Virus record (IMG/VR): IMGVR_UViG_3300045526_000297
Location: 1-58,017 of that record
DNA length: 58,017 nt
DNA from: a virus
Lineage: Duplodnaviria > Caudoviricetes
Reading direction: 5' to 3' (one strand)
Shown here: positions 5,952 through 58,017 of the stretch, in pieces
Position numbering within the stretch: the first letter of the stretch is position 1
How the letters are laid out: each line of letters starts with the position of its first letter
Made by a program: the position numbers and the translations under genes
The notes under the pieces: generated by a model
The model's database searches: none
Told to the model about the DNA's origin: nothing
What the model saw: the letters and a program-made list of their open reading frames with translations, nothing else

Positions 5952-7694
5952 ATGGCTGAGATAGATTCTGGGACATCAGGACAATCTGGTAACAATACTA
6001 CATCAGGATCTATTTTATCTAAAGACGTTAGAAATGCTGTTTTAAAAAATAATGCAATAGATTCTTCCATTTTTAGAAATGATTTATTAGCATCCGAAAA
6101 TAGAAGAAGACAAATAGATCTTGAAAATAGTGCGGTAATTAGAGAACAAGAAAAAGCTCTTATTGGATTTAATTCAAGTATTCAGTCACTTAGATCTGAT
6201 ATTGGAAGATTAGGGGTAGGACTTGAAAATATTGCACTACTTCTTCGTCAAGATGGCGCGGAAGAACAGAATAGAATTAGACAAGATCAGGAAAAAGAAA
6301 GAAGATTAGCGGAACAACAGATAAGAATAGGAAAAGAAAATCAATTAGAACAAAAGATACAAAATGCAGTTACGGAACCTGTAGAAAGGTTGGTTCCCAA
6401 AGTAAATGATATTTTTGGAAGAATAGGTGCGGCACTTTCTATTCTATTTGGTGGTTGGTTAACTAATCAGGTTGTTCAGGCGATAAGAGCATCTGAAGAA
6501 AAAAATACGAAATTATTTAATGATATTAAATTTAATATTGTTAAAAATTTAGCTATTGTTGGTGGAGGATTATTTGCAATTAGAGCAGGATTTTCTTTGG
6601 TTAAAAGATCCATTTCCGGAATCGCTTCTGGATTGACCAAGTTGTTAATTGCAAAACCACTTGCAGCTGCTGCATCATTGATACCTGGCATGGGTAGAAG
6701 AACTACCAGTTCGGGGGGAGGTGGTGGAATAAAACCCGGAGGTGGTAGAAGAACTACCAGTTCGGGGGGAGGTGGTGGAATAAAACCCGGAGGTGGTAGA
6801 AGTGGTCTTAATGTACGTGGTAATCTTGCAATAGGATCTTTAATGACGGGGATTGATATTGCTTCTGGAGAAAATCCAGGAAGAGCTATTGCCGGAGCTG
6901 TAGGAGGAATGTTTACATCAGCGACTGCCTTTGGTTTGGCATCTTTATTACCAATTCCGATGTCTGGAGTTATTTCCAGTGCTTTGGCATACAGTCCAGG
7001 ACAAAATTTTACAAAAGATATTTATGATAAATTTTTTGGCAACTCTAATAAAAATTCTGGAATGAATTCTAGCGGTGCTCCAACATCTTCATCAAAACCA
7101 ATGTCTATGGGGGAACCATCTTCTACACAATCAACACCCCCAACAACACAATTGTCAGTACCAACCACACAATCAACACCTCCCATGGTGCAACCACAAA
7201 CTCCAATGATGGGAGAAAAACCAACTTCATCTCCACCATCTCCGGATATGGTTTCAAAATTTGAACAGGCATGGCAATATAGAAATAATCCTATGACTAG
7301 AAGAAAAATTGAAGGTGCTTGGAATCAAATGACTCCTGATCAAAAACAGCAGGCAAAAGATTGGGCAGCATCAAAGGGTTATGATTGGAGGGAAATGAAA
7401 TTACAAGAATCTCCTAGTATGGCGGATTTTAAACAAGAACCACCTAAACAAATAGATGAATCTAAACCAGCACAGGCAGAAATTTCCCCCACACCTAAAC
7501 CATCTCAAGAAGTTGGTCAATTGCCAGAACCAAAACCAACATTGACAATGATTAAAACATCTACACAACAAATGCAACAACCCGAAGTTCCATTAACCAG
7601 TGGTGCATTGAGTGATGTCCCATTAATAAATTCTGCAAATCCAGATAATTTTTATATTTTATATTCTCAATTAAATTATAACGTGGTAATCTAA
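5952..7694 (+). CDS. putative virion/tape-measure-like protein (coiled coil, Gly-rich hydrophobic middle, Pro/Ser-rich tail)
   Basis: Composition and position after gp26/gp51; upstream TAAATAAATA late-promoter motif near 5906. Confidence 0.5.
   Translation: MAEIDSGTSGQSGNNTTSGSILSKDVRNAVLKNNAIDSSIFRNDLLASENRRRQIDLENSAVIREQEKALIGFNSSIQSLRSDIGRLGVGLENIALLLRQDGAEEQNRIRQDQEKERRLAEQQIRIGKENQLEQKIQNAVTEPVERLVPKVNDIFGRIGAALSILFGGWLTNQVVQAIRASEEKNTKLFNDIKFNIVKNLAIVGGGLFAIRAGFSLVKRSISGIASGLTKLLIAKPLAAAASLIPGMGRRTTSSGGGGGIKPGGGRRTTSSGGGGGIKPGGGRSGLNVRGNLAIGSLMTGIDIASGENPGRAIAGAVGGMFTSATAFGLASLLPIPMSGVISSALAYSPGQNFTKDIYDKFFGNSNKNSGMNSSGAPTSSSKPMSMGEPSSTQSTPPTTQLSVPTTQSTPPMVQPQTPMMGEKPTSSPPSPDMVSKFEQAWQYRNNPMTRRKIEGAWNQMTPDQKQQAKDWAASKGYDWREMKLQESPSMADFKQEPPKQIDESKPAQAEISPTPKPSQEVGQLPEPKPTLTMIKTSTQQMQQPEVPLTSGALSDVPLINSANPDNFYILYSQLNYNVVI
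6693..6802 (+). repeat. exact 51-bp in-frame tandem duplication (GRRTTSSGGGGGIKPGG x2)
   Basis: Unit starts at 6693 and 6744, with a partial third copy at 6795. Confidence 0.95.
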
Positions 7695-13864: not shown

Positions 13865-16834
13865 ATGGCAGATATTACGGTTACCGGAAATCAGGCATAT
13901 TTTAACGAAGATGCTAAATTCTTCAAAGACGTTTATATTTACGGAACCTTATTTTATGATTTTCCTACCGGAGTATCTGCATCACAATTGTCTGGGGATT
14001 CTGCAAGTGTAAAAAATTTAGATGTTTTTGAGAACGCTAACTTTTTTGGATCTGCTAATTTTTATGAGAATGTCTATTTTGAAAAAGGTATTAATGTTGG
14101 AATATTAACTGTAAGACAGCGATTAGATGTTGGTATTGGTGGAACCACATTAAGAGCAGATGCAGATATTGGCAAAGTTGGTATAGCAACAACTTCACCG
14201 AGACAGGAATTAGATGTAGTTGGTATCGCAATTATCAGCAATAAAGTTGGTATTGGAAGTACTATACCTGAACAAAAACTTGATGTTGCCGGTAGTGTTA
14301 AAATAGATGAATTTATCTATGATTCGGCAAATTCTCCAGGAATAAATGGATATTATTTAAATATGGATTCCTCGGGAATTCGCTGGATTTCAGCGACCCC
14401 AAATTTTAGTGAAGGAATTTATGTTCAAGATGAAGGAACTTATATTCCCACAGCGGGAATTGCTCAGTCATTCACAGTTTTAAATTTTAAGCAAATTAAT
14501 AGTCTTGGATTAGGAACAGATACAATTGTACCAATTCCCAATCCAAGTAATCCAACATTTATTGCCGATATTCAGTCCAAAGATCTTTGGGGACATAATA
14601 TAAACGGTGATATTTATAGAATGACTAAAGTTGGAGTACAAACTAGTAATCCAATAACAACTTTAGATATAACTGGAACAGTTCATGCCACTGGTGCCGT
14701 TGATTTTGATTCAACTTTAGATGTTGATGGTGCTACAACACTTAATAATACTCTAGATGTTGATGGTGCTACAACACTTAATAATACTCTAGATGTTGAT
14801 GGTGCTACAACACTTAATAATACTCTAGATGTCGATGGTGTTACCACACTCAATGATTCTTTAGATGTTGATGGTGCTACAACACTTAATAATACTCTAG
14901 ATGTTGATGGTGCTACAACACTTAATAATACTCTAGATGTTGATGGTGCTACAACACTTAATAATACTCTAGATGTTGATGGTGCTACAACACTTAATAA
15001 TACTCTAGATGTAACTGGTGCTGTTGATTTTGATTCAACCTTAAATGTCGATGGTGCTTCAGTATTTCAAAGTACTGTAGAACTTAATTCATCTTTAATT
15101 GATGTAAACAATAGCACGGCAACTGGAAAGTTTGATTATCGTCTTTCTTCTGTTGGAACCGGAGTATCTTGGAGACCTCCTGGCGTTCAGACGCAAAATG
15201 CCATTTGGGTAACCATGGATGGAAATGATTCTAATAGTGGTTATTTGGAAGGAGATGCAAAAAGAACCATTGGAGCAGCGGCATCAATTGCAGAACCAGG
15301 AGATACAATTTTTGTTCGTTCCGGAGTTTATTTTGAAAATAATCCAATTGGGTTAAGAACGGATGTTTCTGTTTCTGGACAAGACCTAAGACTTGTGACT
15401 ATCATTCCAAATAATCCAATCAAAGATGTTTTTCATGTAAGAAGAGGATGTCTGGTTGAAAATATAAGTTTTGCCGGAAACAGTGTTTCTATCGCACATA
15501 CTGGTGCCGGGGCAGTGGCATTTCCGCCAACAATTGCGGATATAAATGCAGGAATATCTCATGCTGCAGTATCCGGATATTTAGATCCAGGCCCTGCAAC
15601 AGAAGGCCCAACAGGAAGATGGAAGTCTCCTTATATAAGAAACTGCACTAATTTCATGACCAAAAGTATTGGTATGAAAATTAATGGAAATCATGCGACA
15701 GCATCATCTATTGGTGCAGATTTAAAATCAATGGTCTGTGATTCATTTACTCAATATAATGAAAATGGTATTGGCGTTTCAATTACAAATAACGGATATG
15801 CACAGTTAGTTTCTATTTTCACAATTAATTGTGATATTGGAATTTTTGCATCAAGTGGTGGATCTTGTGATCTTACAAACTCTAATTCTTCATTTGGTAA
15901 TTATGGTCTTTATGCCGTTGGATTAGGTGCAACAGAATTTACCGGAATTGTTGGAACTTATCCTCCAACAAGAACTCAACCAGGTGTTGATGCCGGATCA
16001 GATGTTGTGACTTTTGAGAATATGAAAGATGATTCTAATGGTGGTATTGGAACTGTTAGGAGACCTTATGATGGACAGGCACTATTCTTTAAAATTGATT
16101 TAAGTAAATATTCAGATACTGTAATCACGGGATTATCAACCACAATTCTTCAAGAACCTATGGTTCAGATTGAATCTATTAAGATTACAAATGGAGGATC
16201 TGGATATAGTCCGGTTACTCCACCAACAGTATTTGTCTATGATTATAATGATAATTCTCAACAACCTAAAGGGCCTCAGGGAATTATTGCAGAATTGAGT
16301 CCAACAATTGATGAGGTAACGGGAGCAATAACTGCAATCGATGTTGCAAACAGTGGAAGAAATTATTTACCAACTCAAGATTTAAGAGTTTTTATTGATG
16401 GTGGAGCGGCAACGGCAGAAGTTATTACTCAACCAATTTATTATACCGTTGATGTTGCCACACAACCTACACCAGTTACAGGAATTACTACCGTAACTTT
16501 TAATGAATTTATTCCTTATGAATTATTTGGTGGTGAAGAAGTTTCACTTAAGAGAATTAGTCGTATTCTTACAAGTTCACATTCGTTCGAGTATATTGGT
16601 ACCGGCGTAGATATAAATACTTCGACACCATTTAAGGGTGCCGTTCCCATTAAAGAAAATGAAATTGTTGCATTGGATGGGGCACAAATTCCATTTACAA
16701 GTACAGATCAAAAAGGAAATTTTGATATTGGTGAGGGATTTCAGATTAATCAACCAACGGCGACAATTAGAGGAAGAGATTTTAGTAAGGCAATACAGGC
16801 AGAAGTTACACCACTCATACTTGCACTGAGATAA
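13865..16834 (+). CDS. virion structural/tail fibre protein with tandem repeats and a beta-helix (pectin-lyase-like) domain
   Basis: KVGIGST motifs, LDVDGATTLNNT repeats, WV..DGNDSNSG...AKRTIGAA, SPYIRNCT, SHSFEYIGTG. Confidence 0.8.
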   Translation: MADITVTGNQAYFNEDAKFFKDVYIYGTLFYDFPTGVSASQLSGDSASVKNLDVFENANFFGSANFYENVYFEKGINVGILTVRQRLDVGIGGTTLRADADIGKVGIATTSPRQELDVVGIAIISNKVGIGSTIPEQKLDVAGSVKIDEFIYDSANSPGINGYYLNMDSSGIRWISATPNFSEGIYVQDEGTYIPTAGIAQSFTVLNFKQINSLGLGTDTIVPIPNPSNPTFIADIQSKDLWGHNINGDIYRMTKVGVQTSNPITTLDITGTVHATGAVDFDSTLDVDGATTLNNTLDVDGATTLNNTLDVDGATTLNNTLDVDGVTTLNDSLDVDGATTLNNTLDVDGATTLNNTLDVDGATTLNNTLDVDGATTLNNTLDVTGAVDFDSTLNVDGASVFQSTVELNSSLIDVNNSTATGKFDYRLSSVGTGVSWRPPGVQTQNAIWVTMDGNDSNSGYLEGDAKRTIGAAASIAEPGDTIFVRSGVYFENNPIGLRTDVSVSGQDLRLVTIIPNNPIKDVFHVRRGCLVENISFAGNSVSIAHTGAGAVAFPPTIADINAGISHAAVSGYLDPGPATEGPTGRWKSPYIRNCTNFMTKSIGMKINGNHATASSIGADLKSMVCDSFTQYNENGIGVSITNNGYAQLVSIFTINCDIGIFASSGGSCDLTNSNSSFGNYGLYAVGLGATEFTGIVGTYPPTRTQPGVDAGSDVVTFENMKDDSNGGIGTVRRPYDGQALFFKIDLSKYSDTVITGLSTTILQEPMVQIESIKITNGGSGYSPVTPPTVFVYDYNDNSQQPKGPQGIIAELSPTIDEVTGAITAIDVANSGRNYLPTQDLRVFIDGGAATAEVITQPIYYTVDVATQPTPVTGITTVTFNEFIPYELFGGEEVSLKRISRILTSSHSFEYIGTGVDINTSTPFKGAVPIKENEIVALDGAQIPFTSTDQKGNFDIGEGFQINQPTATIRGRDFSKAIQAEVTPLILALR
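14716..15056 (+). repeat. 36-bp in-frame tandem repeat, about 9 copies (LDVDGATTLNNT)
   Basis: ctagatgttgatggtgctacaacacttaataatact repeated near-identically. Confidence 0.95.
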
Positions 16835-20500: not shown

Positions 20501-22479
20501 GTTTTGCATCTACTACTAGTGGATCTAGTAGCGTTTATGGAGACACTTCTTTAACATTTAATCCTACTTCTAATAGTCTAGGAATTGGTATAGCAAATCC
20601 GCAAAATGTCTTACATCTTAGTGGAAATCCAGGAACAATTTTGAGAATTGATGGGGGATCTGGTGGTACTGGAACAAGAGATATTTTTATTAGCGAATTT
20701 AATACAACTGCTTATGGTGGTATTATAAGATATGATTCAATTGCAGATTTATTTACATTTGGTACTGTAGAAAATTCGGTTGTACAAAATGCAATTAACG
20801 TTGCGAGAACATCTGCAAATGTTGGTATTGGTAGCACAATTCCAACTCAAAAACTTCAGGTTGCCGGTAATGTGGCACCTGATGAAACTGGAACCAGGGA
20901 TTTAGGAACATCTACTCTTAAATGGAACACAGTTTATGCCAATACATTTAATGGGCAATTTATAGGAAATGCCGATACTGCTTCTAAATTAGCAACACCA
21001 AGAATTATTGCTGCAACTAATGATATTTCTTGGTCGGTTTCTTTTGATGGATCCGCAAATGTATCTTCTGCGGCAACTTTATCAAACACCGGAGTAATCG
21101 CAGGAACTTATGGTTCTTCAACACAGGTTGGTGTGATAACCGTAGATGCAAAGGGTAGAATTACTTCAGCATCTAATGTTTCAATTGCCTTCACTAATGC
21201 AACCGTAGCCAGAGCAGGATATGCGGACAGTGCAGGTATAGCAACTAATCTTAGAGGTGGTACTGCATATCAAATTCCATATCAATCTGCAGTAAACACA
21301 ACTGCATTTATAGCAAATGGTACTGTTACTGGACAATTACTCCAATATAATAGTTCGGCAGCACCATCTTGGGTAAACCCTTCTGGTTTAACTGTATCTA
21401 GAGCGGGATATGCAGACACTGCAGGTATAGCAACTAATCTTAGAGGCGGTTCTCCTGGTTCAATTCCTTATCAATCTTCTTCCAATGTAACAACTTTTCT
21501 AAATGATCCTAATGTAAATGGAGCTATTTTAACCTGGAATGATTCAAGTTCACAACCATCCTGGACTTCCCCATCTAATTTATCAGTTAGTAAAGCATCT
21601 TATGCAGACAAAGCAGGATTATCAACTGATGTAGAACTTAATGGATCAGGACAACTTCTTTATCAACCAGGAAACAATAATACCGAATTATTATCATTTG
21701 GTTCTGTTGGGCAAATACTTCAATCTAATGGTACGGGATCAGCTCCTAGTTGGGTTAATATAAGTGGATTAACTGCCGGATTTGCATCCTATGCTACTAA
21801 AGCGGGATTAGCAACTGATGTAGAGATTAATGGAACTAATCAACTTCTTTATCAAGCTTCTAATAATAACACGGTAGCACTTTCAACAGGAACATCAGGA
21901 CAAATACTTCAATCTAATGGTACAGGATCAGCTCCTAGTTGGGTTAATATAAGTGGATTAACTGCCGGATTTGCATCCTATGCCACTAAAGCAGGATTAG
22001 CAACTGATGTAGAACTTAATGGATCAGGACAACTTCTTTATCAACCAGGAAACAATAATACCGAATTATTATCATTTGGTTCTGTTGGACAAATACTTCA
22101 ATCTAATGGTGCAAATCAAGCACCTTCTTGGATAACTTTAGGATCTTCTGTAGGTGCCGCAATTAGTGGACTTACGATTAGGGATGAGGGAACTATAACT
22201 CCTTCAGGTGGTGTGGGTGTCATTACCACTATTAATTTTGTTGGTTATGGAGTTACGGTTGTTGGTAGTTTTTCTGGTGTTGCCACCGTAACAGTTTCAA
22301 CAAATCAAATAGAAGGGCCACTTACGGTAGAAGGACTACCATTTATTAAAAATCGTAAAACCGTTGCAACTTCTTATACTGTTAGTGCAGATTTCAATGA
22401 GATGAGTATTGGCCCAATAACTATAAATAATGGTGTTACCGTTACTGTCAGTAGTGGCGGAAATTGGACAATTATTTAA
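17509..22479 (+). CDS. long tail fibre protein (1656 aa)
   Basis: Many VGIGT/VTGISTF motifs, DLG...RW blocks, AGTYGS..VDAKGRITSA, C-terminal GPITINNGVTVTVSSGGNWTII. Confidence 0.85.
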   Translation: MAKYLSGRSKRTPQSALSDERYRYLSVGDAEPNFGDPIFPGEFPPFGQQYQIVSVEGYPGERYWVPIGGGLIPGSISVFDEGNLVGGLSSTTQVNFVGAAITVIGISGPPPGVGVTVTVFAPGNNSEILFNTSNEFSTSPKLKFDTSTGSLIAGDRIIVGTGGTVITTTGVGSVGIGTTDPTQELHLQGDFRITGTIYDYFNSPGSPTQLIAKNNFGGITWVDQGTIRSAAGGTVGNVQYHNSVGLVDGAPNFVFDEFNNRIGIGSTIPTVLLDVLGYSKFTGQTEIDNLYVTGITTLKNLGVLGLTTTKNLEVTGVATIGFLTGNNAYFTGIVTADQGFVGSIDITQLNVTGFASIKDLGVSGLTTTRDLQVYESTLLNRLKVSGISTFDSQVIINNLNVTGVGTFDNIKLDTNTVSTNIGNLIIDSSGGTTQINDIVYINDYTQSIDSNTGALVVEGGVGIGSRLNVDGAVKLATLGGITTTGGDLYVAGNLFVNNDIFYDELFARNGYFTGIVSTKDLLVTGVATIATLGVSGLTTTRTLRVTGISTFDDFIDANGGAYIDNIQIGITDNNEIDTSSGNLTIDSAGGLTTIDDRLFVTGISTFNANTVFNANVTLGNNVGGDTVSFGSSVNTNIIPQATDTYDLGQSDSLRWRTIYAQTFSGKFIGNADTASQIATATTTGISSYFLTFVDSNNSPASYETLYTDSGITYTPSNDLLTVGKLVVTGISTFEGTSTFNGITTFTNNVFIGNSNTDKVSFAATVDSNIIPSGTRDLGSITNRWDKFYVNEIVGTVTGTISSVSITNDSSTNAIRFISFASTVSGSSSIYGDTNLTFNPSNDTVSIGGSLGIGNANPGTRLDVTGNVRLSGSVPEIELNTGGPRFRVPSSNTLTVHTGGGLSSGTNEVIRINATGVGIETSTPRYKLHVIGDTNITGLTSLGGNLVPTGDGTQDIGLPERKWNKFYVNELVGTITGTISSVSITDDTNNAANPVRFISFASTTSGSSSVYGDTSLTFNPTSNSLGIGIANPQNVLHLSGNPGTILRIDGGSGGTGTRDIFISEFNTTAYGGIIRYDSIADLFTFGTVENSVVQNAINVARTSANVGIGSTIPTQKLQVAGNVAPDETGTRDLGTSTLKWNTVYANTFNGQFIGNADTASKLATPRIIAATNDISWSVSFDGSANVSSAATLSNTGVIAGTYGSSTQVGVITVDAKGRITSASNVSIAFTNATVARAGYADSAGIATNLRGGTAYQIPYQSAVNTTAFIANGTVTGQLLQYNSSAAPSWVNPSGLTVSRAGYADTAGIATNLRGGSPGSIPYQSSSNVTTFLNDPNVNGAILTWNDSSSQPSWTSPSNLSVSKASYADKAGLSTDVELNGSGQLLYQPGNNNTELLSFGSVGQILQSNGTGSAPSWVNISGLTAGFASYATKAGLATDVEINGTNQLLYQASNNNTVALSTGTSGQILQSNGTGSAPSWVNISGLTAGFASYATKAGLATDVELNGSGQLLYQPGNNNTELLSFGSVGQILQSNGANQAPSWITLGSSVGAAISGLTIRDEGTITPSGGVGVITTINFVGYGVTVVGSFSGVATVTVSTNQIEGPLTVEGLPFIKNRKTVATSYTVSADFNEMSIGPITINNGVTVTVSSGGNWTII
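21610..22110 (+). repeat. 189-bp (63-aa) internal repeat units in the tail fibre gene, A-B-A arrangement
   Basis: KAGL(S/A)TDVE...GQILQSNG occurs three times; first and third copies are near-identical in DNA. Confidence 0.9.
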
Positions 22480-24960: not shown

Positions 24961-24974
24961 TGATTTGGATTTAT

Positions 24975-25062
24975 GGTCGTCAGAACAGGTGTTCAGAGGG
25001 GTCTTATAAACCCTTTGCCCCAGATTAGGGCCTTTGGCAGGGTTCGATACCCTGGGCGACTA
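24975..25062 (+). tRNA. tRNA-Ile (anticodon TAT), long variable arm, no encoded CCA
   Basis: Acceptor GGTCGTC/GGCGACT-A; short D arm GAAC-AGGT-GTTC; anticodon GGGGT-CTTATAA-ACCCT; variable stem GCCC/GGGC; T arm CAGGG-TTCGATA-CCCTG. Confidence 0.75.
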
Positions 25063-25065
25063 TCT

Positions 25066-25137
25066 GCTCGTTTATCTATCTAGGAAAGCATCGATCTAAT
25101 AAATCGACATAGGTCGGGGCAGAGCCGACAACGAGCA
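25066..25137 (+). tRNA. tRNA-Ile-like gene (anticodon AAT) with non-canonical D and T loops
   Basis: Acceptor GCTCGTT/AACGAGC-A; anticodon TCGAT-CTAATAA-ATCGA; T arm GTCGG-GGCAGAG-CCGAC (no TTC). Confidence 0.65.
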
Positions 25138-25141
25138 CTTA

Positions 25142-25170
25142 ACCATTATAACTCAAAGAGTTATAATGGT
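25142..25170. repeat. perfect 13-bp inverted repeat between tRNAs
   Basis: ACCATTATAACTC-aaa-GAGTTATAATGGT. Confidence 0.9.
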
Positions 25171-25177
25171 CTCACAA

Positions 25178-25261
25178 GCGAGTATGGTGGAATCGGTAGA
25201 CACACCAGACTTAAAATCTGTTGGGGGCAACCCCGTGCCAGTTCGACCCTGGATACTCGCA
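25178..25261 (+). tRNA. tRNA-Leu (anticodon TAA)
   Basis: GCGAGTA/TACTCGC-A acceptor; TGGTGGAATCGGTAGACAC D arm; CAGA-CTTAAAA-TCTG; variable stem GGGG-CAA-CCCC; GTTCGA T loop. Confidence 0.92.
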
Positions 25262-25295
25262 CTTAAAATAAATATAAGATATCGGACAAACTCGA

Positions 25296-53222: not shown

Positions 53223-54910
53223 GATGGACTACGAAACTTACATAGACATCAAGCAGTATTCTTCTGATGGAACTTTTCATTTCACTCTTAAAGTGACTGA
53301 TGTAATGAATATGGATTACTATTATGATGGTAGTGCTCCTACTCTTGAAGATGTTATGGGTTGTATCAAAATCTTTCTGAAAAATCACCAGAACTGAAAT
53401 GACTGACGAACAAATCCTTGAACTTGCTAAAACCTGTGGGTTTGGAACATACACAAATGATGATGGGACACCATCCGATTACTTTGATTGTTATTCGGAA
53501 CAACTCTTGAAGTTTGCCTGGGAAATCTATGGTATTGCTGCTGATGAAACCCTCCAAGATTATGAATCTAAATTTTGATTATGACTGACGAACAAGTGTT
53601 TGAACTTATTAGAAAGTATCTCCCAAAAAATCTTGCTTATAGGCAAGATGGTGGATTGCTTGACCCGTGTAAAATAGAAGGAACTCTTGGAGATGTTCTT
53701 GATTTTGTTAAAGCAATCTACACAGAAGGTTTCAAAGTGGGTTATGATGAGGGTTGGGAAAGTGCTAATGTAAGCACCAAAATGAATACTTGGAGTTCTG
53801 ATGATGACTAAACTATCTCCAAAAGCAGACGCAATTATGGAAGCATATTACGATATTGATACGACAGAAGAAGAGGGTATTGTTGCCCTTCTCCGTGAGG
53901 TAGTCAATCAACTTCAATACTACAACTTTGGTGAGGGAGAAGATATGATTGTAGATGCCCGTGCTATACTTGATATTGCTGATGAGTTGGAGGAGCACTT
54001 TAAATGACTAAACAAAACATTAGAGAAGTCCAATCATGTTATTTGGAAGGAAAAATTGATGATATGATTTATCAACTTACAAAATGGAAAAATGAAGGAT
54101 GGGAAGTAGTTTCTGATGATATTTTTATTGAACTTTATAAAACTCGATTAGAGACCGATGAGGAATATAATCACCGAATGAGTAATGAAAAAATTATGAA
54201 AGAACGTGCCGAAGCACAACGACGCAAACAGTATGAGAAACTCCGTGAGGAATTTGGTAATGACTGAAACTATTCAAACCCTCAAAGAGGATATTGCTGT
54301 TCTCCAAGAGAAACTACAAAAACTTGAAGAACAAGACCCTGAAATGCTACTATTGCGTCAAGGTAAAGTAGATATTGTTGATTATAATCATAGAACTCAT
54401 TATAGAATTGAATACACAGATAGTTTTTCTGGTGTTTATAAGTGGTTTGTGCGAAAATTGGGAGAAATTCCTTTTCTTGAAGAAGTTAGGGATGTAAATG
54501 TTTATGCTCTTCTTGAAGAACTTTACCAGAAAGAAGTAGTGAAACAAAAAGACGATTATCCTTATAAAAAATATACACCAGAAGAAACAGAACAATCTCT
54601 GAAAGAAGCATTTAGAGAAGCAGTCAAGCAGGGAATTGTTCACGAGGTTGATAAAGTTAGTGATGTTTTTATGAATGAAATGGTTGAGAAACTCAAAGGG
54701 CAAACTCTTTATGATGTGATTGCTGACTGGTGGAATGACGTATTTGCAAATGAAATGGATGATGGTAGTTGTATTGATGTTCTGGTGAGTAGAATTGATA
54801 AGTGGTTGCCGAAATATCAATCTGCTGAAGGTTCTCAAAATGCTTATGTTGAAAGTGCCGTAGAAGGTTTTAATGATGCAATTAAACAAATCAAGTCCAA
54901 GTTGAGGTAA
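53223..54910 (+). other. six hypothetical CDSs (including 53399-53578, a paralog of 44792-44983, and ~54260-54910)
   Basis: Coupled + strand ORFs. Confidence 0.7.
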
Positions 54911-54976
54911 GGACACTTCCCAAACCGGCACAAGGGCACTTGAACTTGCTTCCCTGATGCCATATAATACATTCGT
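54911..54976 (+). promoter_or_regulatory. early promoter repeat, copy 10
   Basis: GGACACTTCCCAAACCGGCACAAGGGCAC, TTGAAC-17-TATAAT. Confidence 0.85.
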
Positions 54977-54988
54977 CCTGTGAATCCA

Positions 54989-55336
54989 ATGAAAGTCAAC
55001 GGTTACGAAATCAAACCCTTTGCTAACCTTTATTGTGCTGACTTTAAGGGTGCTAATCTTGAGGGTGCTAACCTTAGGGGTGCTATCCTTTGGGGTGCTT
55101 ACCTTAATGGTGCTAACCTTGAGTATGCTTACCTTAGGTATGCTAACCTTAAGGGTGCTGACCTTGAGGGTGCTAACCTTAATGGTGCTAACCTTGAGGG
55201 TGCTAATGTAAAAGGAACCATTCTTGAGAAGAAAGAAGAACCTCAAGATGATACTTCACTGTCCCAAAAGGTCAAAGAACTTGAGGAAGAGAATAAGAAA
55301 CTCAAAGATACACTCAAGGCACTTCTGGACACTTGA
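54989..55336 (+). CDS. pentapeptide-repeat protein with C-terminal coiled coil
   Basis: A(N/D/Y)LxG repeats; [13 protein letters not shown]-terminus; [12 protein letters not shown] tail. Confidence 0.9.
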   Translation: MKVNGYEIKPFANLYCADFKGANLEGANLRGAILWGAYLNGANLEYAYLRYANLKGADLEGANLNGANLEGANVKGTILEKKEEPQDDTSLSQKVKELEEENKKLKDTLKALLDT

Positions 55337-55392
55337 AGAACCGGCACAAGGGCACTTGAACTTGCTTCCCTGATGCCCTATAATACATTCGT
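55327..55392 (+). promoter_or_regulatory. early promoter repeat, copy 11
   Basis: GGACACTTGAAGAACCGGCACAAGGGCAC, TTGAAC-17-TATAAT; overlaps the stop of the upstream gene. Confidence 0.85.
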
Positions 55393-55424
55393 AAATCAAA
55401 CAAACCCAAACGACTTACAAAACT

Positions 55425-55772
55425 ATGATTACTACTACTGCTACTGCTTCTCTTTCCACCATCGAAATCAACGGCATCACTTATGCCCCTGTTGGTTCTG
55501 GTTCTAACACTCTTCCCACTGGCAATCGTCACGTTGTTGTGATTGACCGTGGTTGGATTGTTGCAGGTGATGTGAGTACCGATGAGGTTACAAACGAACT
55601 TGTCGTGAGCAATGCCATTCACGTTTTCCGTTGGGAAAGCATCGGTTTCGCTGGTGTTCTCAAGAATCCTAAGGACTCTAAAGTGACTCTGATGGAACTT
55701 GCTTATCCCGTGAAAGTCCCTCAAGGTTCTGTTATCTTCACCATTCCCGTTCCCGAAACCTGGGGTAAGTGA
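55425..55772 (+). CDS. hypothetical small beta-barrel (Sm/SH3-like) protein heading the Gly-rich peptide cassette
   Basis: HVVVIDRGWIVAG...LVVSNAIHVFRW...GFAG...VKVP..SVIFTIPV pattern; fold call is by eye. Confidence 0.6.
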   Translation: MITTTATASLSTIEINGITYAPVGSGSNTLPTGNRHVVVIDRGWIVAGDVSTDEVTNELVVSNAIHVFRWESIGFAGVLKNPKDSKVTLMELAYPVKVPQGSVIFTIPVPETWGK

Positions 55773-55786
55773 TTCACGTCTCTTGG

Positions 55787-55822
55787 GAGGGTAGTGAGAA
55801 ATCATTACCCTCTTTTTTTTTT
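55787..55822 (+). terminator. intrinsic terminator
   Basis: 11-bp stem GAGGGTAGTGA/TCATTACCCTC, GAAA tetraloop, followed by T10. Confidence 0.9.
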
Positions 55823-55837
55823 ATCAGGAGGTCTTAA

Positions 55838-56053
55838 ATGACAGACTACTTTTATCCCGTAGGTAACGGTTACGGTGACGGTTACGGTAACGGTTACGGT
55901 GACGGTTCCGGTTCCGGTTACGGTTACGGTTACGGTGACGGTGACGGTTACGGTTACGGTGACGGTGACGGTTACGGTTACGGTGACGGTTACGGTAACG
56001 GTTACGGTGACGGTTACGATTCCATTTCCACAAGAACCCGTAGGAGGTCTTAA
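55838..56053 (+). CDS. Gly/Tyr-rich peptide 1 (71 aa)
   Basis: AGGAGGT RBS; MTDYFYPVG-(GX)n-SISTRTRRRS. Confidence 0.8.
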   Translation: MTDYFYPVGNGYGDGYGNGYGDGSGSGYGYGYGDGDGYGYGDGDGYGYGDGYGNGYGDGYDSISTRTRRRS

Positions 56054-56054
56054 A

Positions 56055-56180
56055 ATGACAGAATACTTTTATCCTGTAGGTTCCGGTGACGGTGACGGTC
56101 ACGGTTACGGTGACGGTTACGGTTTCGGTTACGGTTTCGGTCACGGTTCCATTTCCACAAGAACCCGTAGGAGGTCTTAA
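56055..56180 (+). CDS. Gly/Tyr-rich peptide 2 (41 aa)
   Basis: MTEYFYPVGSGDGDGHGYGDGYGFGYGFGHGSISTRTRRRS; RBS inside the previous RRRS codons. Confidence 0.8.
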   Translation: MTEYFYPVGSGDGDGHGYGDGYGFGYGFGHGSISTRTRRRS

Positions 56181-56181
56181 A

Positions 56182-56439
56182 ATGGCAGAATACTTTTATC
56201 CTGTAGGTTCCGGTGACGGTTACGGTCACGGTGACGGTTTCGGTGACGGTTACGGTTACGGTAACGGTTACAGTTCTGGTTCCGGTTCCGGTTACGGTTT
56301 CGGTGACGGTTTCGGTTACGGTGACGGTTTCGGTGACGGTTACGGTTACGGTAACGGTTACAGTTCTGGTTCCGGTTACGGTTACGGTTTCGGTAACGGT
56401 AACGGTTCCATTTCCACAAGAACCCGCAGGAGGTCTTAA
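56182..56439 (+). CDS. Gly/Tyr-rich peptide 3 (85 aa)
   Basis: MAEYFYPVG-(GX)n-SISTRTRRRS. Confidence 0.8.
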   Translation: MAEYFYPVGSGDGYGHGDGFGDGYGYGNGYSSGSGSGYGFGDGFGYGDGFGDGYGYGNGYSSGSGYGYGFGNGNGSISTRTRRRS

Positions 56440-56440
56440 A

Positions 56441-56536
56441 ATGACAGAATACTTTTATCCCGTAGGTAACGGTTACGGTGACGGTTACGGTTACGGTCAC
56501 GATTCCATTTCCACAAGAACCCGCAGGAGGTCTTAA
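56441..56536 (+). CDS. Gly/Tyr-rich peptide 4 (31 aa)
   Basis: MTEYFYPVGNGYGDGYGYGHDSISTRTRRRS. Confidence 0.8.
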   Translation: MTEYFYPVGNGYGDGYGYGHDSISTRTRRRS

Positions 56537-56537
56537 A

Positions 56538-56735
56538 ATGACAGAATACTTTTATCCTGTAGGTAACGGTTACGGTAGCGGTTACGGTGACGGTTACGGT
56601 TACGGTTACGGTTACGGTGACGGTGACGGTTACGGTTACGGTGACGGTTCCGGTTACGGTAACGGTTTCGGTTACGGTTCCGGTTACGGTAGCGGTTACG
56701 GTTCCATTTCCACAAGAACCCGCAGGAGGTCTTAA
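56538..56735 (+). CDS. Gly/Tyr-rich peptide 5 (65 aa)
   Basis: MTEYFYPVG-(GX)n-SISTRTRRRS. Confidence 0.8.
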   Translation: MTEYFYPVGNGYGSGYGDGYGYGYGYGDGDGYGYGDGSGYGNGFGYGSGYGSGYGSISTRTRRRS

Positions 56736-56736
56736 A

Positions 56737-56994
56737 ATGGCAGAATACTTTTATCCCGTAGGTAACGGTTACGGTGACGGTTCCGGTTACGGTTACGGTG
56801 ACGGTTACGGTTACGGTAACGGTTACGGTAACGGTTACGGTTTCGGTTACGGTTTCGGTTACAGTTCCGGTAACGGTTTCGGTAACGGTTACGGTTACGG
56901 TGACGGTTACGGTTCCGGTTACGGTTTCGGTGACGGTTCCGGTTCCGGTTACGGTTACGATTCCATTTCCACAAGAACCCGCAGGAGGTCTTAA
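56737..56994 (+). CDS. Gly/Tyr-rich peptide 6 (85 aa)
   Basis: MAEYFYPVG-(GX)n-SISTRTRRRS. Confidence 0.8.
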   Translation: MAEYFYPVGNGYGDGSGYGYGDGYGYGNGYGNGYGFGYGFGYSSGNGFGNGYGYGDGYGSGYGFGDGSGSGYGYDSISTRTRRRS

Positions 56995-57056
56995 ATGTCG
57001 CCTCTTTACCAAGAAACAAGAAAAAAATCACACTGAACTTGTGAGAGTATTGAAAC

Positions 57057-57130
57057 GGACACTTCCCAAACCGGCACAAGGGCACTTGAAAGCAGGTGCT
57101 CTTTCTGGTATGATATTCTCATACACAAAG
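57057..57130 (+). promoter_or_regulatory. early promoter/stem-loop repeat, copy 12
   Basis: GGACACTTCCCAAACCGGCACAAGGGCAC, TTGAAA-17-TATGAT. Confidence 0.85.
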
Positions 57131-57137
57131 AACTCTA

Positions 57138-57455
57138 ATGAAAGTCAACGGTTACGAAATCAAACCCTTTGCTGACCTTGTGGGTGCTAACCTTGAGGGT
57201 GCTAACCTTGAGGGTGCTGACCTTGTGGATGCTAACCTTTTTGGTGCTTACCTTAGGGGTGCTAACCTTGCGTATGCTGACCTTAGGGATGCTGACCTTT
57301 ATGTTGCTGACCTTGAGGGTGCTAATGTAAAAGGAACCATTCTTGAGAATAAAGAAGAATCTCAAGAGGAAACATCGCTCTCTCAAAAAGTCAAAGAACT
57401 TGAAGAAGAACTGAAGAAATATAAAAATACACTCAGGGCACTTTTGAATGAATAA
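57138..57455 (+). CDS. pentapeptide-repeat protein, paralog of 54989-55336
   Basis: Identical [12 protein letters not shown] start, ANLEG repeats, [22 protein letters not shown]. Confidence 0.9.
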
Positions 57456-57460
57456 AACCT

Positions 57461-57799
57461 ATGAACATCCTTGAATACTACATTACACACGTCTTTCCAA
57501 CAGGATGGCAAACTGTAGCATCAGCATTTCGTATCTGGAAAGACCTGATGATTGGGAACTATCAGGACTATGCTCTGATGCCTGATGATGACCCAGAGCA
57601 AGAATGTATAGAATGGTTCTGGGCAACCTTAGGGGATGATGATGTTCTTCCTAAGGAGTTTCTTGAATACTTGTATCAACTATCAGAAGATGTAGAAACT
57701 GGTAAGGTAAAGACTTATCCACTAACAGAGAATATGTTTGATGAACTCAGAGACCTTGGAGTTGATTTAATAGAGGAGAAAGATGATGGGGCTCTTTGA
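57461..57799 (+). CDS. hypothetical acidic protein
   Basis: 112-aa ORF coupled to the upstream gene. Confidence 0.75.
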   Translation: MNILEYYITHVFPTGWQTVASAFRIWKDLMIGNYQDYALMPDDDPEQECIEWFWATLGDDDVLPKEFLEYLYQLSEDVETGKVKTYPLTENMFDELRDLGVDLIEEKDDGAL

Positions 57800-58017
57800 T
57801 TATGTAAGGTCTTCATATGATTTAGGACCTGACTTCACAAATGTAGAACTACAAACCAAGGGTCTTGATTGTTCTATGACAAGATATTGGATTGCTACGG
57901 ATGGTTGTCTATATGAACTGACGTATCGGGACACTCACGACTTTGTGGAGATTGGTGAGGATGATGATCGTTATGACCCAAACAGAAGATTTCTAAACTT
58001 TGAGTGGGTACCAACAG
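57786..58017 (+). CDS. 3'-truncated hypothetical protein
   Basis: MGLFDYVRSSYDLGPDFTNVELQTKGLDCSMTRYWI... is open to the window end. Confidence 0.7.
   Translation, partial: MGLFDYVRSSYDLGPDFTNVELQTKGLDCSMTRYWIATDGCLYELTYRDTHDFVEIGEDDDRYDPNRRFLNFEWVPT

Follow-up and report, generated by a model that had tools for sequence, protein, structure and literature searches.

The closest described counterpart of the locus studied here is a pair of genes in the cultured Rheinheimera phage vB_RspM_Barba1A (MK719701.1), gp018 and gp017, both annotated only as hypothetical proteins. The first encodes a 104-aa protein and is followed 3 nt later by the second, which encodes a 69-aa (Gly-X)n peptide with X = Y/N/D; the two Barba papers mention neither gp017, gp018 nor glycine in their main text, while per-gene expression for Barba is listed in a supplement of PMC9305737, which may bear on when the pair is expressed. 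Other systems resemble these peptides only in how they may work or are built. Synthetic "prion-inspired" binary heptapeptides (GYGYGYG, NYNYNYN, SYSYSYS) share the binary X-Tyr pattern with Gly, Asn and Ser, and are reported to self-assemble into fibrils modelled as polar zippers, "corroborated by experimental observations" (PMC8163036). Prion-like low-complexity domains of FUS-type proteins and glycine-rich RNA-binding proteins are rich in Gly, Tyr, Ser and Asn, with function attributed to Tyr (and Arg) stickers and not to sequence order, although these are domains of large eukaryotic proteins attached to RNA-binding folds. In the C9orf72 poly-GA/GR proteins and the Gly-Ala repeat of EBNA1, the latter also viral, a 6-nt DNA repeat is read as a Gly-X dipeptide repeat. 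Finally, RiPP precursor arrays (radical-SAM-associated Gly-rich repeat peptides, Tyr-Gly spliceotides, cyanobactins) and microcin B17 with its pentapeptide-repeat immunity protein combine small tandem genes with a leader, a Gly-rich core and a follower.

We analyzed a 58,017-nt freshwater cyanophage fragment (IMG/VR record IMGVR_UViG_3300045526_000297, positions 1 to 58,017; hereafter the window), in which a first-pass annotation made from the sequence alone had pointed to a tandem array of six mini-genes with a fixed leader, a variable (Gly-X)n core and a fixed Arg-rich tail. This observation is correct. The features of the array and its upstream region are as follows.

55341..55384 (+), early-type promoter: a conserved motif, CCGGCACAAGGGCACTTGA, overlapping a TTGAAC-17-TATAAT sigma-70-like promoter upstream of the partner gene
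55425..55772 (+), partner gene: a 115-aa protein of an uncatalogued family, with conserved DRGWIxAG and VFRWESIGF motifs
55785..55824 (+), terminator-like hairpin (13 pairs) followed by T10, between the partner gene and unit 1
55826..55832 (+), Shine-Dalgarno sequence AGGAGGT of unit 1
55838..56053 (+), unit 1, 71 aa, net charge -6
56055..56180 (+), unit 2, 41 aa, net charge 0
56182..56439 (+), unit 3, 85 aa, with an internal duplication in the core
56441..56536 (+), unit 4, 31 aa, the shortest, net charge +1
56538..56735 (+), unit 5, 65 aa
56737..56994 (+), unit 6, 85 aa
56995..57036 (+), 13-aa ORF whose ATG directly abuts the TAA of unit 6, behind the same AGGAGGT; probably incidental re-initiation, and not claimed as a gene

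All six units read M[TA][DE]YFYPVG-(G-X)n-SISTRTRRRS, start with ATG and end in TAA, with 1 nt separating each stop from the next ATG. AGGAGGT ends 6 nt before every ATG, and for units 2-6 it lies inside the Arg-Arg-Ser codons of the unit before. Lengths including the stop are 216, 126, 258, 96, 198 and 258 nt, and therefore differ by multiples of 6. Among the 132 core hexamers, X is Y in 57, D in 26, S in 18, N in 15, F in 12 and H in 4. Tandem Repeats Finder reports a period-6 array at 55862-56959 with 177 copies, and the five 61-nt junctions between units differ at only 3 positions. The first-pass annotation had further stated that automated ORF callers mis-start these genes in the (Val-Thr)n frame; GTG-started ORFs in that frame that run into the next unit do exist, which shows the presence of such ORFs only. 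Two of its arguments carry no weight: considering that GGT-NNC hexamers cannot make a stop codon, and that slippage of a hexamer cannot shift the frame, the lack of stops or frameshifts and the length differences in multiples of 6 follow from the repeat itself.

To find out which frame is used, we compared the units with those of related loci. The six ORFs are very probably translated in the Gly-X frame, a conclusion drawn from sequence alone: units in one related locus (L008) use TAT, GGA, GGG, GAT and AAT, and those in another (L011) use GGC and GGT, yet they give the same leader, composition and tail. Over 159 distinct runs from 86 loci, Gly codons are GGC 2311, GGT 1020, GGA 128 and GGG 12, and X is Y in a fraction of 0.44, D in 0.20, N in 0.15 and S in 0.09. 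In contrast, the product of the +2 frame changes with the codon used, being (Ala-Thr)n, (Val-Thr)n or Asp-Met. His (0.013) and Cys (0.012) are rare although each is one transition away from TAC, which indicates selection on the amino acid read in the Gly-X frame. Relatives with irregular cores still reach the conserved tail in frame, and 74 of 95 peptides have a leader ending in P-[VIA]-G while 83 of 95 have a tail with at least 2 Arg/Lys. The Arg tail is not only a by-product of the Shine-Dalgarno sequence, as single-copy relatives keep it with codons that lack AGGAGG. Some observations point the other way. Within the window, the only variable hexamer positions are 4 and 5, position 3 being T in 132 of 132 hexamers and position 6 being C in 130 of 132, so that the commonest changes are silent in the +2 (Val-Thr)n frame, which is also open (only 3 of the 159 runs carry a stop in it). 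Frameshifted cores in relatives had been named beforehand as a finding that would count against the peptides, and one of 39 complete units found in the close clade (the first unit of locus L036) is indeed frameshifted in its core. The antisense (Arg-Asn)n reading was rejected, as it has no start codon and one antisense frame carries stops in 155 of 159 runs. Codon usage in the array is the reverse of that of the genome and favours C-ending codons: TAC makes up 9% of Tyr codons in 17 large ORFs but 63 of 69 in the array, and GGT makes up 35% of Gly codons in those ORFs but 132 of 132 in the array.

The main new result comes from the genomic context. The 115-aa partner has 469 metagenomic homologues and 356 IMG/VR loci, and its family gives 299 clusters at 50% identity. 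In 79 of the 80 best IMG/VR loci, a (Gly-X)n peptide gene sits directly beside it: 76 have a Gly-X ORF starting between -40 and +800 nt of the partner's stop, 59 of which overlap the stop (start-to-stop gaps of -1 in 44, -13 in 11 and -4 in 4), three have the ORF just upstream, and the one remaining locus has only 64 nt of downstream sequence. The same holds for 14 of 15 loci from bacterial genome bins, and a fused form (P0214) exists. Both features by which we define the module, a homologue of the ~105-aa DRGWIxAG/VFRWE protein directly beside a (Gly-X)n ORF on the same strand, and a core of about 50% Gly with X dominated by Tyr and then Asp, Asn and Ser, are thus present in the window and in the wider family. 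No third gene is conserved: when 96 loci were clustered by neighbouring genes, the partner cluster was found in 92, the next cluster, in 9 loci, was an alternative-frame artefact inside the partner gene, and the next real one was in 7. So the array is a local tandem expansion of one half of a widespread, undescribed two-gene phage module. The first-pass annotation had suggested handling by the adjacent protein as one possibility, and this link is much stronger than could be known from the window.

The Barba pair is a true homologue of this module, with a 104-aa partner that shows 46% identity to a relative of the window's partner over 67% of the query. It differs in being single copy, in using GGC as its Gly codon, in having neither a P-V-G leader nor a basic tail, and in its gammaproteobacterial host. 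Among 50,697 phage records, the window's partner, two other partner homologues and unit 6 found nothing, and only a fourth homologue found Barba phages (115 records, all Barba). The nearest cultured relative of the window, S-SRM01, has no partner match and no Gly-Tyr repeat by pattern, while the Barba control gave 7 matches.

Repeat turnover is fast. Four Barba isolates with identical partner genes (0 of 315 nt differ) carry 4 different alleles of the peptide gene, with the repeat length varying among isolates, a relative with 93-97% identical flanks has 2 units instead of 6, and independent assemblies have arrays of 3, 5 and 7 units, with every unit 1 nt from the next in the 5- and 7-unit arrays, as here. 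The order of X is near random: there is no periodicity at lags 2-8, apart from one Asn outlier at lag 7 (about +3.4 sd), while neighbouring Tyr-Tyr is slightly depleted (0.935 against 1.015 ± 0.021 in shuffles). Composition is thus conserved, order is not, and the aromatic residues are evenly spread, as in prion-like, sticker-spacer low-complexity domains, a functional class to which these free-standing phage micro-proteins of strict period 2 show no homology. The RTX/beta-roll type of calcium-binding repeat, which has a nine-residue period with a hydrophobic position, does not fit, given the strict period 2, the lack of higher periodicity and the near absence of hydrophobic residues from X.

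We next considered how the module may be expressed. The promoter upstream of the partner gene has 10 of 12 consensus matches, and its motif occurs 5 times in the window, against 0 expected in 100 shuffles. A GC-rich hairpin plus T-run, of differing sequence, is present between partner and peptide gene in the window and in loci L033, L034, L036, L037 and L038, and argues against high transcription of the array. Contigs of a metatranscriptome library cover the partner gene and pieces of the array with 0-2 differences, which shows presence in an RNA library only, considering that these contigs do not bridge partner and array, that DNA can contaminate RNA libraries, and that contigs cannot show starts, ends or expression levels; parts of the stretch without RNA cover and five small-share runs (X16-X20) were not used as evidence.

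Taken together, the interpretation in the first-pass annotation is partly supported. The Gly-X frame, the absence of the system from the catalogues searched and the link to the adjacent protein hold. The proposal of a diversifying library is weakened, as the variation is what hexamer slippage plus a constraint on composition would give. The proposal of a high dose is set against the hairpin, although the codon usage of the array speaks against that objection, and the leader-core-follower proposal lacks a conserved maturase-like gene nearby. The idea of condensates or amyloid stays plausible as a hypothesis.

In our best explanation, the six ORFs are paralogues of a single peptide gene that, in hundreds of environmental phages, sits directly beside a ~105-aa protein, and partner and peptide(s) would form one early transcription unit. 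In most phages the ATG of the peptide overlaps the stop codon of the partner; in this cyanomyovirus clade, the hairpin separates the two, and in this view the peptide gene has multiplied by unequal recombination across the 61-nt junction, with core lengths drifting by slippage of the 6-nt repeat and selection acting on composition, length and the two end motifs rather than on the order of X. We further propose that the peptides act through bulk properties, with Tyr residues as multivalent stickers, Gly as spacer, Asp/Asn/Ser as solubilisers and the Arg tail as a second sticker or nucleic-acid binder, and that they would self-associate into a gel, condensate or polar-zipper fibril together with the partner early in infection. 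The anatomy, the sequence evidence for the frame, the linkage, the lack of a third conserved gene, the repeat turnover, the order of X, the codon usage, the promoter and the RNA-library contigs are what our analysis shows; translation itself, binding to the partner, assembly and any function in infection are inferred. We have high confidence that these are a translated gene family and part of this module and moderate confidence in the explanation as a whole, while the assembly mechanism remains tentative. The designed fibril-forming peptides are only 7 residues long, whereas the phage peptides are 31-158 aa, contain about 20% Asp and have end motifs and a partner, and the Arg-sticker part of the model cannot hold for the whole family, as the Barba peptide lacks a basic tail.

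More speculatively, phages of many bacterial phyla may carry an unrecognized class of stand-alone (Gly-Tyr/Asp/Asn)n dipeptide-repeat micro-proteins that, nucleated or anchored by a dedicated ~105-aa partner, build a Tyr-driven condensate, gel or polar-zipper fibril in the infected cell. This would be a viral "prion-like domain supplied in trans", its dose and length tuned by tandem duplication and hexamer slippage, and this cyanophage would be the most amplified case examined here apart from one 7-unit relative; the evidence does not exclude this, but we consider it rather unlikely. The module would add a new kind of phage gene product, namely free-standing low-complexity repeat peptides kept under selection for composition and strictly paired with one small folded protein, in hundreds of environmental phage contigs associated with very different bacteria. 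It has probably been overlooked systematically, as it is absent from Pfam, NCBIfam, PHROGs and PADLOC, as low-complexity filters hide it from BLAST (the search with unit 6 found nothing although Barba carries such a peptide), and as its repeats coincide with contig ends; our literature searches likewise found no description of it. Because a cultured, harmless phage-host pair (Barba and Rheinheimera sp. BAL341) carries the module, it is accessible to knock-outs, proteomics and imaging. The array is also a clean natural example of codon choice opposite to the bias of the genome, and of fast repeat-length evolution inside a coding gene.

Of the alternatives, one that survives best, though unlikely, is that the peptides act singly on a universal host machine, as a slippery Gly-rich substrate that stalls AAA+ proteases, a Tyr-cluster decoy for tyrosine kinases or phosphatases, or an acidic-aromatic mimic of single-stranded nucleic acid, with the partner as adaptor or chaperone. 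The module occurs in phage contigs binned with very different bacteria and in a Novosphingobium prophage, so any host target would have to be universal. It lies among early and replication-recombination genes, beside DNA polymerase and an exonuclease in Barba and near YqaJ-like and MazG-like ORFs (named from our reading of their sequences alone) in other loci, and a function that depends on composition rather than sequence fits a decoy as well as a scaffold. However, there is no homology to any known inhibitor and no PADLOC match, nothing points to a particular target, and the strict pairing with one partner is not required by a simple decoy. Equally unlikely is that the gene family is real but the count of six units, or their order, is a short-read assembly artefact (collapse, expansion or a strain chimera). 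The junctions are nearly identical, related arrays (G002, G005) lie at contig ends, no short-read contig in the DNA run spans the array, and one RNA contig joins 56956 back to 56079. On the other hand, both edges and unit-specific internal pieces are found with 0 differences in the contigs of an independent run, and other assemblies give arrays of 2, 3, 5 and 7 units.

More doubtful still is that these are RiPP-like precursors, with leader and follower as recognition sites and Tyr-Gly-X motifs modified or cross-linked by the partner or by host enzymes into a bioactive product. The conserved end motifs fit, tandem precursor genes are typical of RiPP loci, and Tyr-Gly and aromatic-X-X motifs are substrates of radical-SAM maturases. 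However, no radical-SAM, YcaO, P450, protease or transporter gene is conserved near the module in the loci clustered, and none of the neighbouring clusters looks like a maturase. The invariant residues of the partner include no Cys or His, it matches no enzyme family, and core sequence and length are free to drift, which is unusual for a defined natural product. NCBIfam holds a model for radical-SAM-associated Gly-rich repeat precursors, but a scan of three units gave only a chance serine-rich hit (E 0.005-0.05, 11-14 bits against a cut-off of 650). A microcin B17-type system, with a Ser/Cys-rich core for azole formation and a McbBCD-type synthetase, does not fit either, as Cys makes up only 1.2% of X and there is no synthetase nearby. 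Pentapeptide-repeat genes flank the module in the window, but in the loci compared with it they turned up only in the contig of the near relative (L009/L016), and were therefore rejected as part of the system. The weakest alternative, a hexanucleotide microsatellite with incidental ORFs or a true product in the +2 (Val/Ala-Thr)n frame, finds some support in hexamer position 4 taking all four bases while positions 3 and 6 hardly ever vary and in that frame being open in 156 of 159 runs, but is very unlikely because the +2 frame has no ATG or Shine-Dalgarno sequence, its product is not conserved where Gly is GGA and Tyr is TAT, leader, tail, stop codon and overlap with the partner's stop are conserved only in the Gly-X frame, His and Cys are depleted, and the peptide gene is kept beside the partner across phages of widely different hosts.

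Searches for known families assigned neither the peptides nor the partner. The partner has no Pfam, NCBIfam, PHROG, PADLOC or PDB match. For the peptides, Pfam gave only compositional hits to TrAA12 and keratin-associated families, below their cut-offs for the three window units searched; PHROGs and PADLOC gave nothing for the window's peptide, while two other metagenome Gly-X proteins gave weak hits to PHROGs of unknown function (E about 0.001-0.002). PDB sequence searches with the partner profile and with unit 6 gave nothing meaningful, the only matches being weak ones that included a GR20 peptide (E = 0.14); unlike the hexanucleotide-derived dipeptide repeats, the phage peptides start at ordinary ATG/Shine-Dalgarno sites, have Tyr/Asp/Asn as X and show no homology to them. 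Rfam gave only sub-threshold repeat artefacts. For the partner, a protein Atlas listed clusters in which 13-49% of members carry DUF6948 (PF22253), but hmmscan found this family in 0 of 68 members of our partner alignment (A1) at E <= 0.01 and in 0 of 10 further homologues at E <= 1, and searches of the window's own record, 5 viral/phage records and 5 genomes with the model found no partner match. A cold-shock domain was rejected as well, as hhalign of A1 against a 12-sequence CSD alignment gave a probability of 0.14%. Longer fused forms of the partner look like gene-calling fusions with no informative domain.

DGR-type targeted mutagenesis was considered because of the NNC codons, but slippage is enough to explain the data. 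Lastly, Y, D, N and H are the four queuosine-decoded amino acids, although F, S, C, A and V also occur as X.

The window, a whole IMG/VR record of 58,017 bp that is estimated to be 24% complete, has baseplate genes that are 75.7% identical to those of the freshwater Synechococcus myovirus S-SRM01, and all 66 matching phage records are cyanophages or marine viruses. At 55838-56994, a scripted search finds exactly 6 ORFs of 71, 41, 85, 31, 65 and 85 aa, each of which reads M[TA][DE]YFYPVG, followed by (Gly-X)n and then SISTRTRRRS. Each ORF ends in TAA, lies 1 nt from the next ATG, and is preceded by AGGAGGT. The 5 junctions are 61 nt long and differ at 3 positions, and Tandem Repeats Finder detects a period-6 array of 177 copies. 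The first-pass annotation had described this array, and its observation is confirmed, while its interpretation was partly supported. Two of its arguments carry no weight: it had pointed to the absence of stops and frameshifts in the cores and to unit lengths that differ by multiples of 6 nt, but GGT-NNC cannot encode a stop, and slippage of a hexamer cannot shift the frame.

We next asked which reading frame is under selection. Within the window itself, the evidence is ambiguous: over 132 core hexamers, positions 1-3 are GGT (with three AGT), position 6 is C in 130, and only positions 4 (T 85, G 26, A 17, C 4) and 5 vary. Most of this variation is silent in the +2 frame, which reads (Val-Thr)n and is also open. 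Because the spacer is 1 nt, the +2 frame of each unit is moreover in frame with the Gly-X frame of the next unit, so that a +1 slip in a core would give a Gly-X/Val-Thr/Gly-X fusion. Relatives settle the question. A scan of IMG/VR with the leader pattern gave 22 stretches, of which 9, from 8 contigs, hold homologous units, while the other 13 are chance matches in unrelated ORFs. The units in one related locus (L008) are built from TAT, GGA, GGG, GAT and AAT, and those in another (L011) from GGC and GGT, yet they encode the same leader, composition and tail. Over 159 distinct runs from 86 loci, the Gly codons are GGC 2311, GGT 1020, GGA 128 and GGG 12, while X stays Y 0.44, D 0.20, N 0.15 and S 0.09; the +2 product, in contrast, switches between Ala-Thr, Val-Thr and Asp-Met. 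His and Cys, each one transition away from TAC, make up only 0.013 and 0.012 of X, which indicates selection on the residue read in the Gly-X frame, and irregular cores still reach the tail in frame. Against this, 1 of 39 complete units in the close clade is frameshifted in its core: the first unit of a three-unit array in the related locus L036 (4408-4719) shifts in mid-core into the +2 frame and lacks the tail, and is either a decayed copy or an assembly error.

The genomic context of the array was unexpected. The elements concerned are the following:
54980-55336, pentapeptide-repeat gene
55425-55772, ORF of 115 aa, here called the partner gene
55838-56994, array of 6 (Gly-X)n ORFs
57138-57455, second pentapeptide-repeat gene, paralogous to the first

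The 115-aa partner ORF matches nothing in Pfam, NCBIfam, PHROGs, PADLOC or the PDB sequences, yet it has 469 metagenomic homologues, 299 clusters at 50% identity and 356 IMG/VR loci. Of the best 80 of these loci, 76 have a Gly-X ORF starting between -40 and +800 nt of the stop of the homologue, and in 59 of these the ATG overlaps the stop (start-to-stop gaps of -1, -13 and -4). Three further loci have the peptide gene just upstream instead, and 1 has only 64 nt of downstream sequence. In bacterial genome bins of many phyla and one Novosphingobium isolate, 14 of 15 loci show the same pairing, and one fused protein (P0214) carries a P-V-G-(Gly-X)n stretch in front of the domain. No third gene is conserved: when the neighborhoods of 96 loci were submitted to clustering, the partner cluster was found in 92, the next cluster (9 loci) is an alternative-frame artefact inside the partner gene, and the next real one is in 7. 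In one relative (L031, G005), a 202-aa ORF at 524-1132 on the minus strand, which by eye looks like an HNH-type homing endonuclease, is inserted between the partner gene and the peptide array. The module also has a cultured example, as gp018 (104 aa) of Rheinheimera phage Barba1A is followed 3 nt later by gp017, a 69-aa (Gly-Y/N/D)n peptide, with both genes annotated as hypothetical. The nearest cultured relative of the window, S-SRM01, has neither gene, so the module is accessory. In the literature searched, no description of the module was found.

Additional observations bear on the surroundings and origin of the module. The 2 pentapeptide-repeat genes that flank it each lie behind a copy of the same promoter motif, and contigs from an RNA library join 55253 to 57387/57397, as if some relatives have a single pentapeptide-repeat gene and lack the whole module; considering that the joined sides are short (23-30 nt), this evidence is weak. 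The G+C content rises to 0.40-0.455 at 54000-58017, against about 0.35 elsewhere in the window, which may point to acquisition of the region from a G+C-richer phage. In this clade, the N-terminal stretch of the partner (55467-55500), ITYAPVGSGS, resembles the peptide leader YFYPVGSG, a resemblance that other clades lack. Finally, many other small metagenome proteins (within the set P0001-P0059) carry (Gly-Tyr/Asp/Asn)n runs fused to at least 2 other uncharacterized small domains, one C-terminal with an I-G-C-Q motif and the other N-terminal with a G-A-C motif, and one protein matches DUF7666. The repeat looks like a portable module.

To examine how the array changes over time, we compared closely related sequences. 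Four Barba isolates whose partner genes are identical (0 of 315 nt differ) carry 4 alleles of the peptide gene: the reference allele, a Gly-Tyr insertion at either of 2 different sites, and an Asn-to-Tyr change. A contig with 93-97% identical flanks has 2 units where the window has 6, and other assemblies show 3, 5 and 7 units; in the 5- and 7-unit arrays, every unit is 1 nt from the next, as here. Related arrays sit at contig ends. The array therefore grows and shrinks by recombination across the junction, and cores change by hexamer slippage, which accounts for the appearance of a library of variants, as the first-pass annotation had put it, without invoking diversifying selection. The order of X is close to random, with no periodicity at lags 2-8 apart from one Asn outlier at lag 7, and Tyr-Tyr neighbors are slightly depleted (0.935 against 1.015 ± 0.021). 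Across 95 distinct peptides with a median length of 92 aa, 74 have a leader ending in P-[VIA]-G and 83 have a tail with at least 2 Arg/Lys, while the Barba peptide has neither end motif.

For signals of expression, we found that a sigma-70-like promoter with a conserved upstream motif precedes the partner gene, and that the next such promoter follows the array. The motif, C[CT]GG[CA]ACA[AG]GGGCACTTGA, is 19 nt long and overlaps the -35 hexamer of sigma-70-like promoters. It occurs 5 times in the window, against 0 expected in 100 shuffles, and is probably the early-promoter signature of this phage:
42707, + strand, promoter motif
46219, + strand, promoter motif
54925, + strand, promoter motif
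55341, + strand, promoter motif
57071, + strand, promoter motif

Between the partner gene and the first unit lies a 13-pair hairpin followed by T10, and a GC-rich hairpin with a T-run is kept at that place, with different sequences, in 6 members of the clade. Transcription into the array may therefore depend on read-through. Codon usage in the array is the reverse of that of the genome: in 17 large ORFs, TAC is 9%, GAC 11%, AAC 15% and GGT 35% of their codon families, while in the array the counts are TAC 63 of 69, GAC 27 of 30, AAC 15 of 15 and GGT 132 of 132. We infer from this selection for smoothly decoded codons in a highly repetitive message, although founder effects of the repeat could contribute. 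The fragment carries 2 tRNA genes at 24974-25262, for Ile (anticodon tat) and Leu (taa), and no tRNA-Gly or tRNA-Tyr. Contigs of one metatranscriptome library cover the partner gene (55431-55822, 1 difference) and pieces of units with 0-2 differences, which shows presence in an RNA library only.

Conserved composition with free order, strict pairing with one small protein, an early-type promoter and a broad host range together suggest bulk-property peptides that act with the partner. In this reading, Tyr would provide multivalent contacts, Gly flexibility, and Asp/Asn/Ser solubility, and in this clade an Arg tail would add a second sticker or nucleic-acid contact. Synthetic GYGYGYG-type peptides are described as forming polar-zipper fibrils (PMC8163036). 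While the sequence comparisons themselves establish the anatomy of the array, its pairing with the partner gene and its variation among relatives, and we are highly confident that these are a gene family within a module, the mode of action, including any assembly of the peptides and any binding to the partner, is inferred, and we regard the assembly mechanism as no more than a tentative possibility. Among the alternatives, a role as decoy or jamming agent is unlikely but survives best, together with the equally unlikely possibility that the number of units is wrong due to assembly. It is more doubtful still that the peptides are RiPP precursors, as no maturase is found nearby, no Cys or His is conserved in the partner, and the cores drift. 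A non-coding or +2-frame reading is very improbable.

Elsewhere in the window, in-frame tandem repeats lie inside large ORFs that are probably tail-fiber or baseplate genes:
14714-15012, repeat of 36 nt, 8.3 copies
21595-22110, repeat of 189 nt, 2.7 copies
6693-6802, repeat of 51 nt, 2.2 perfect copies
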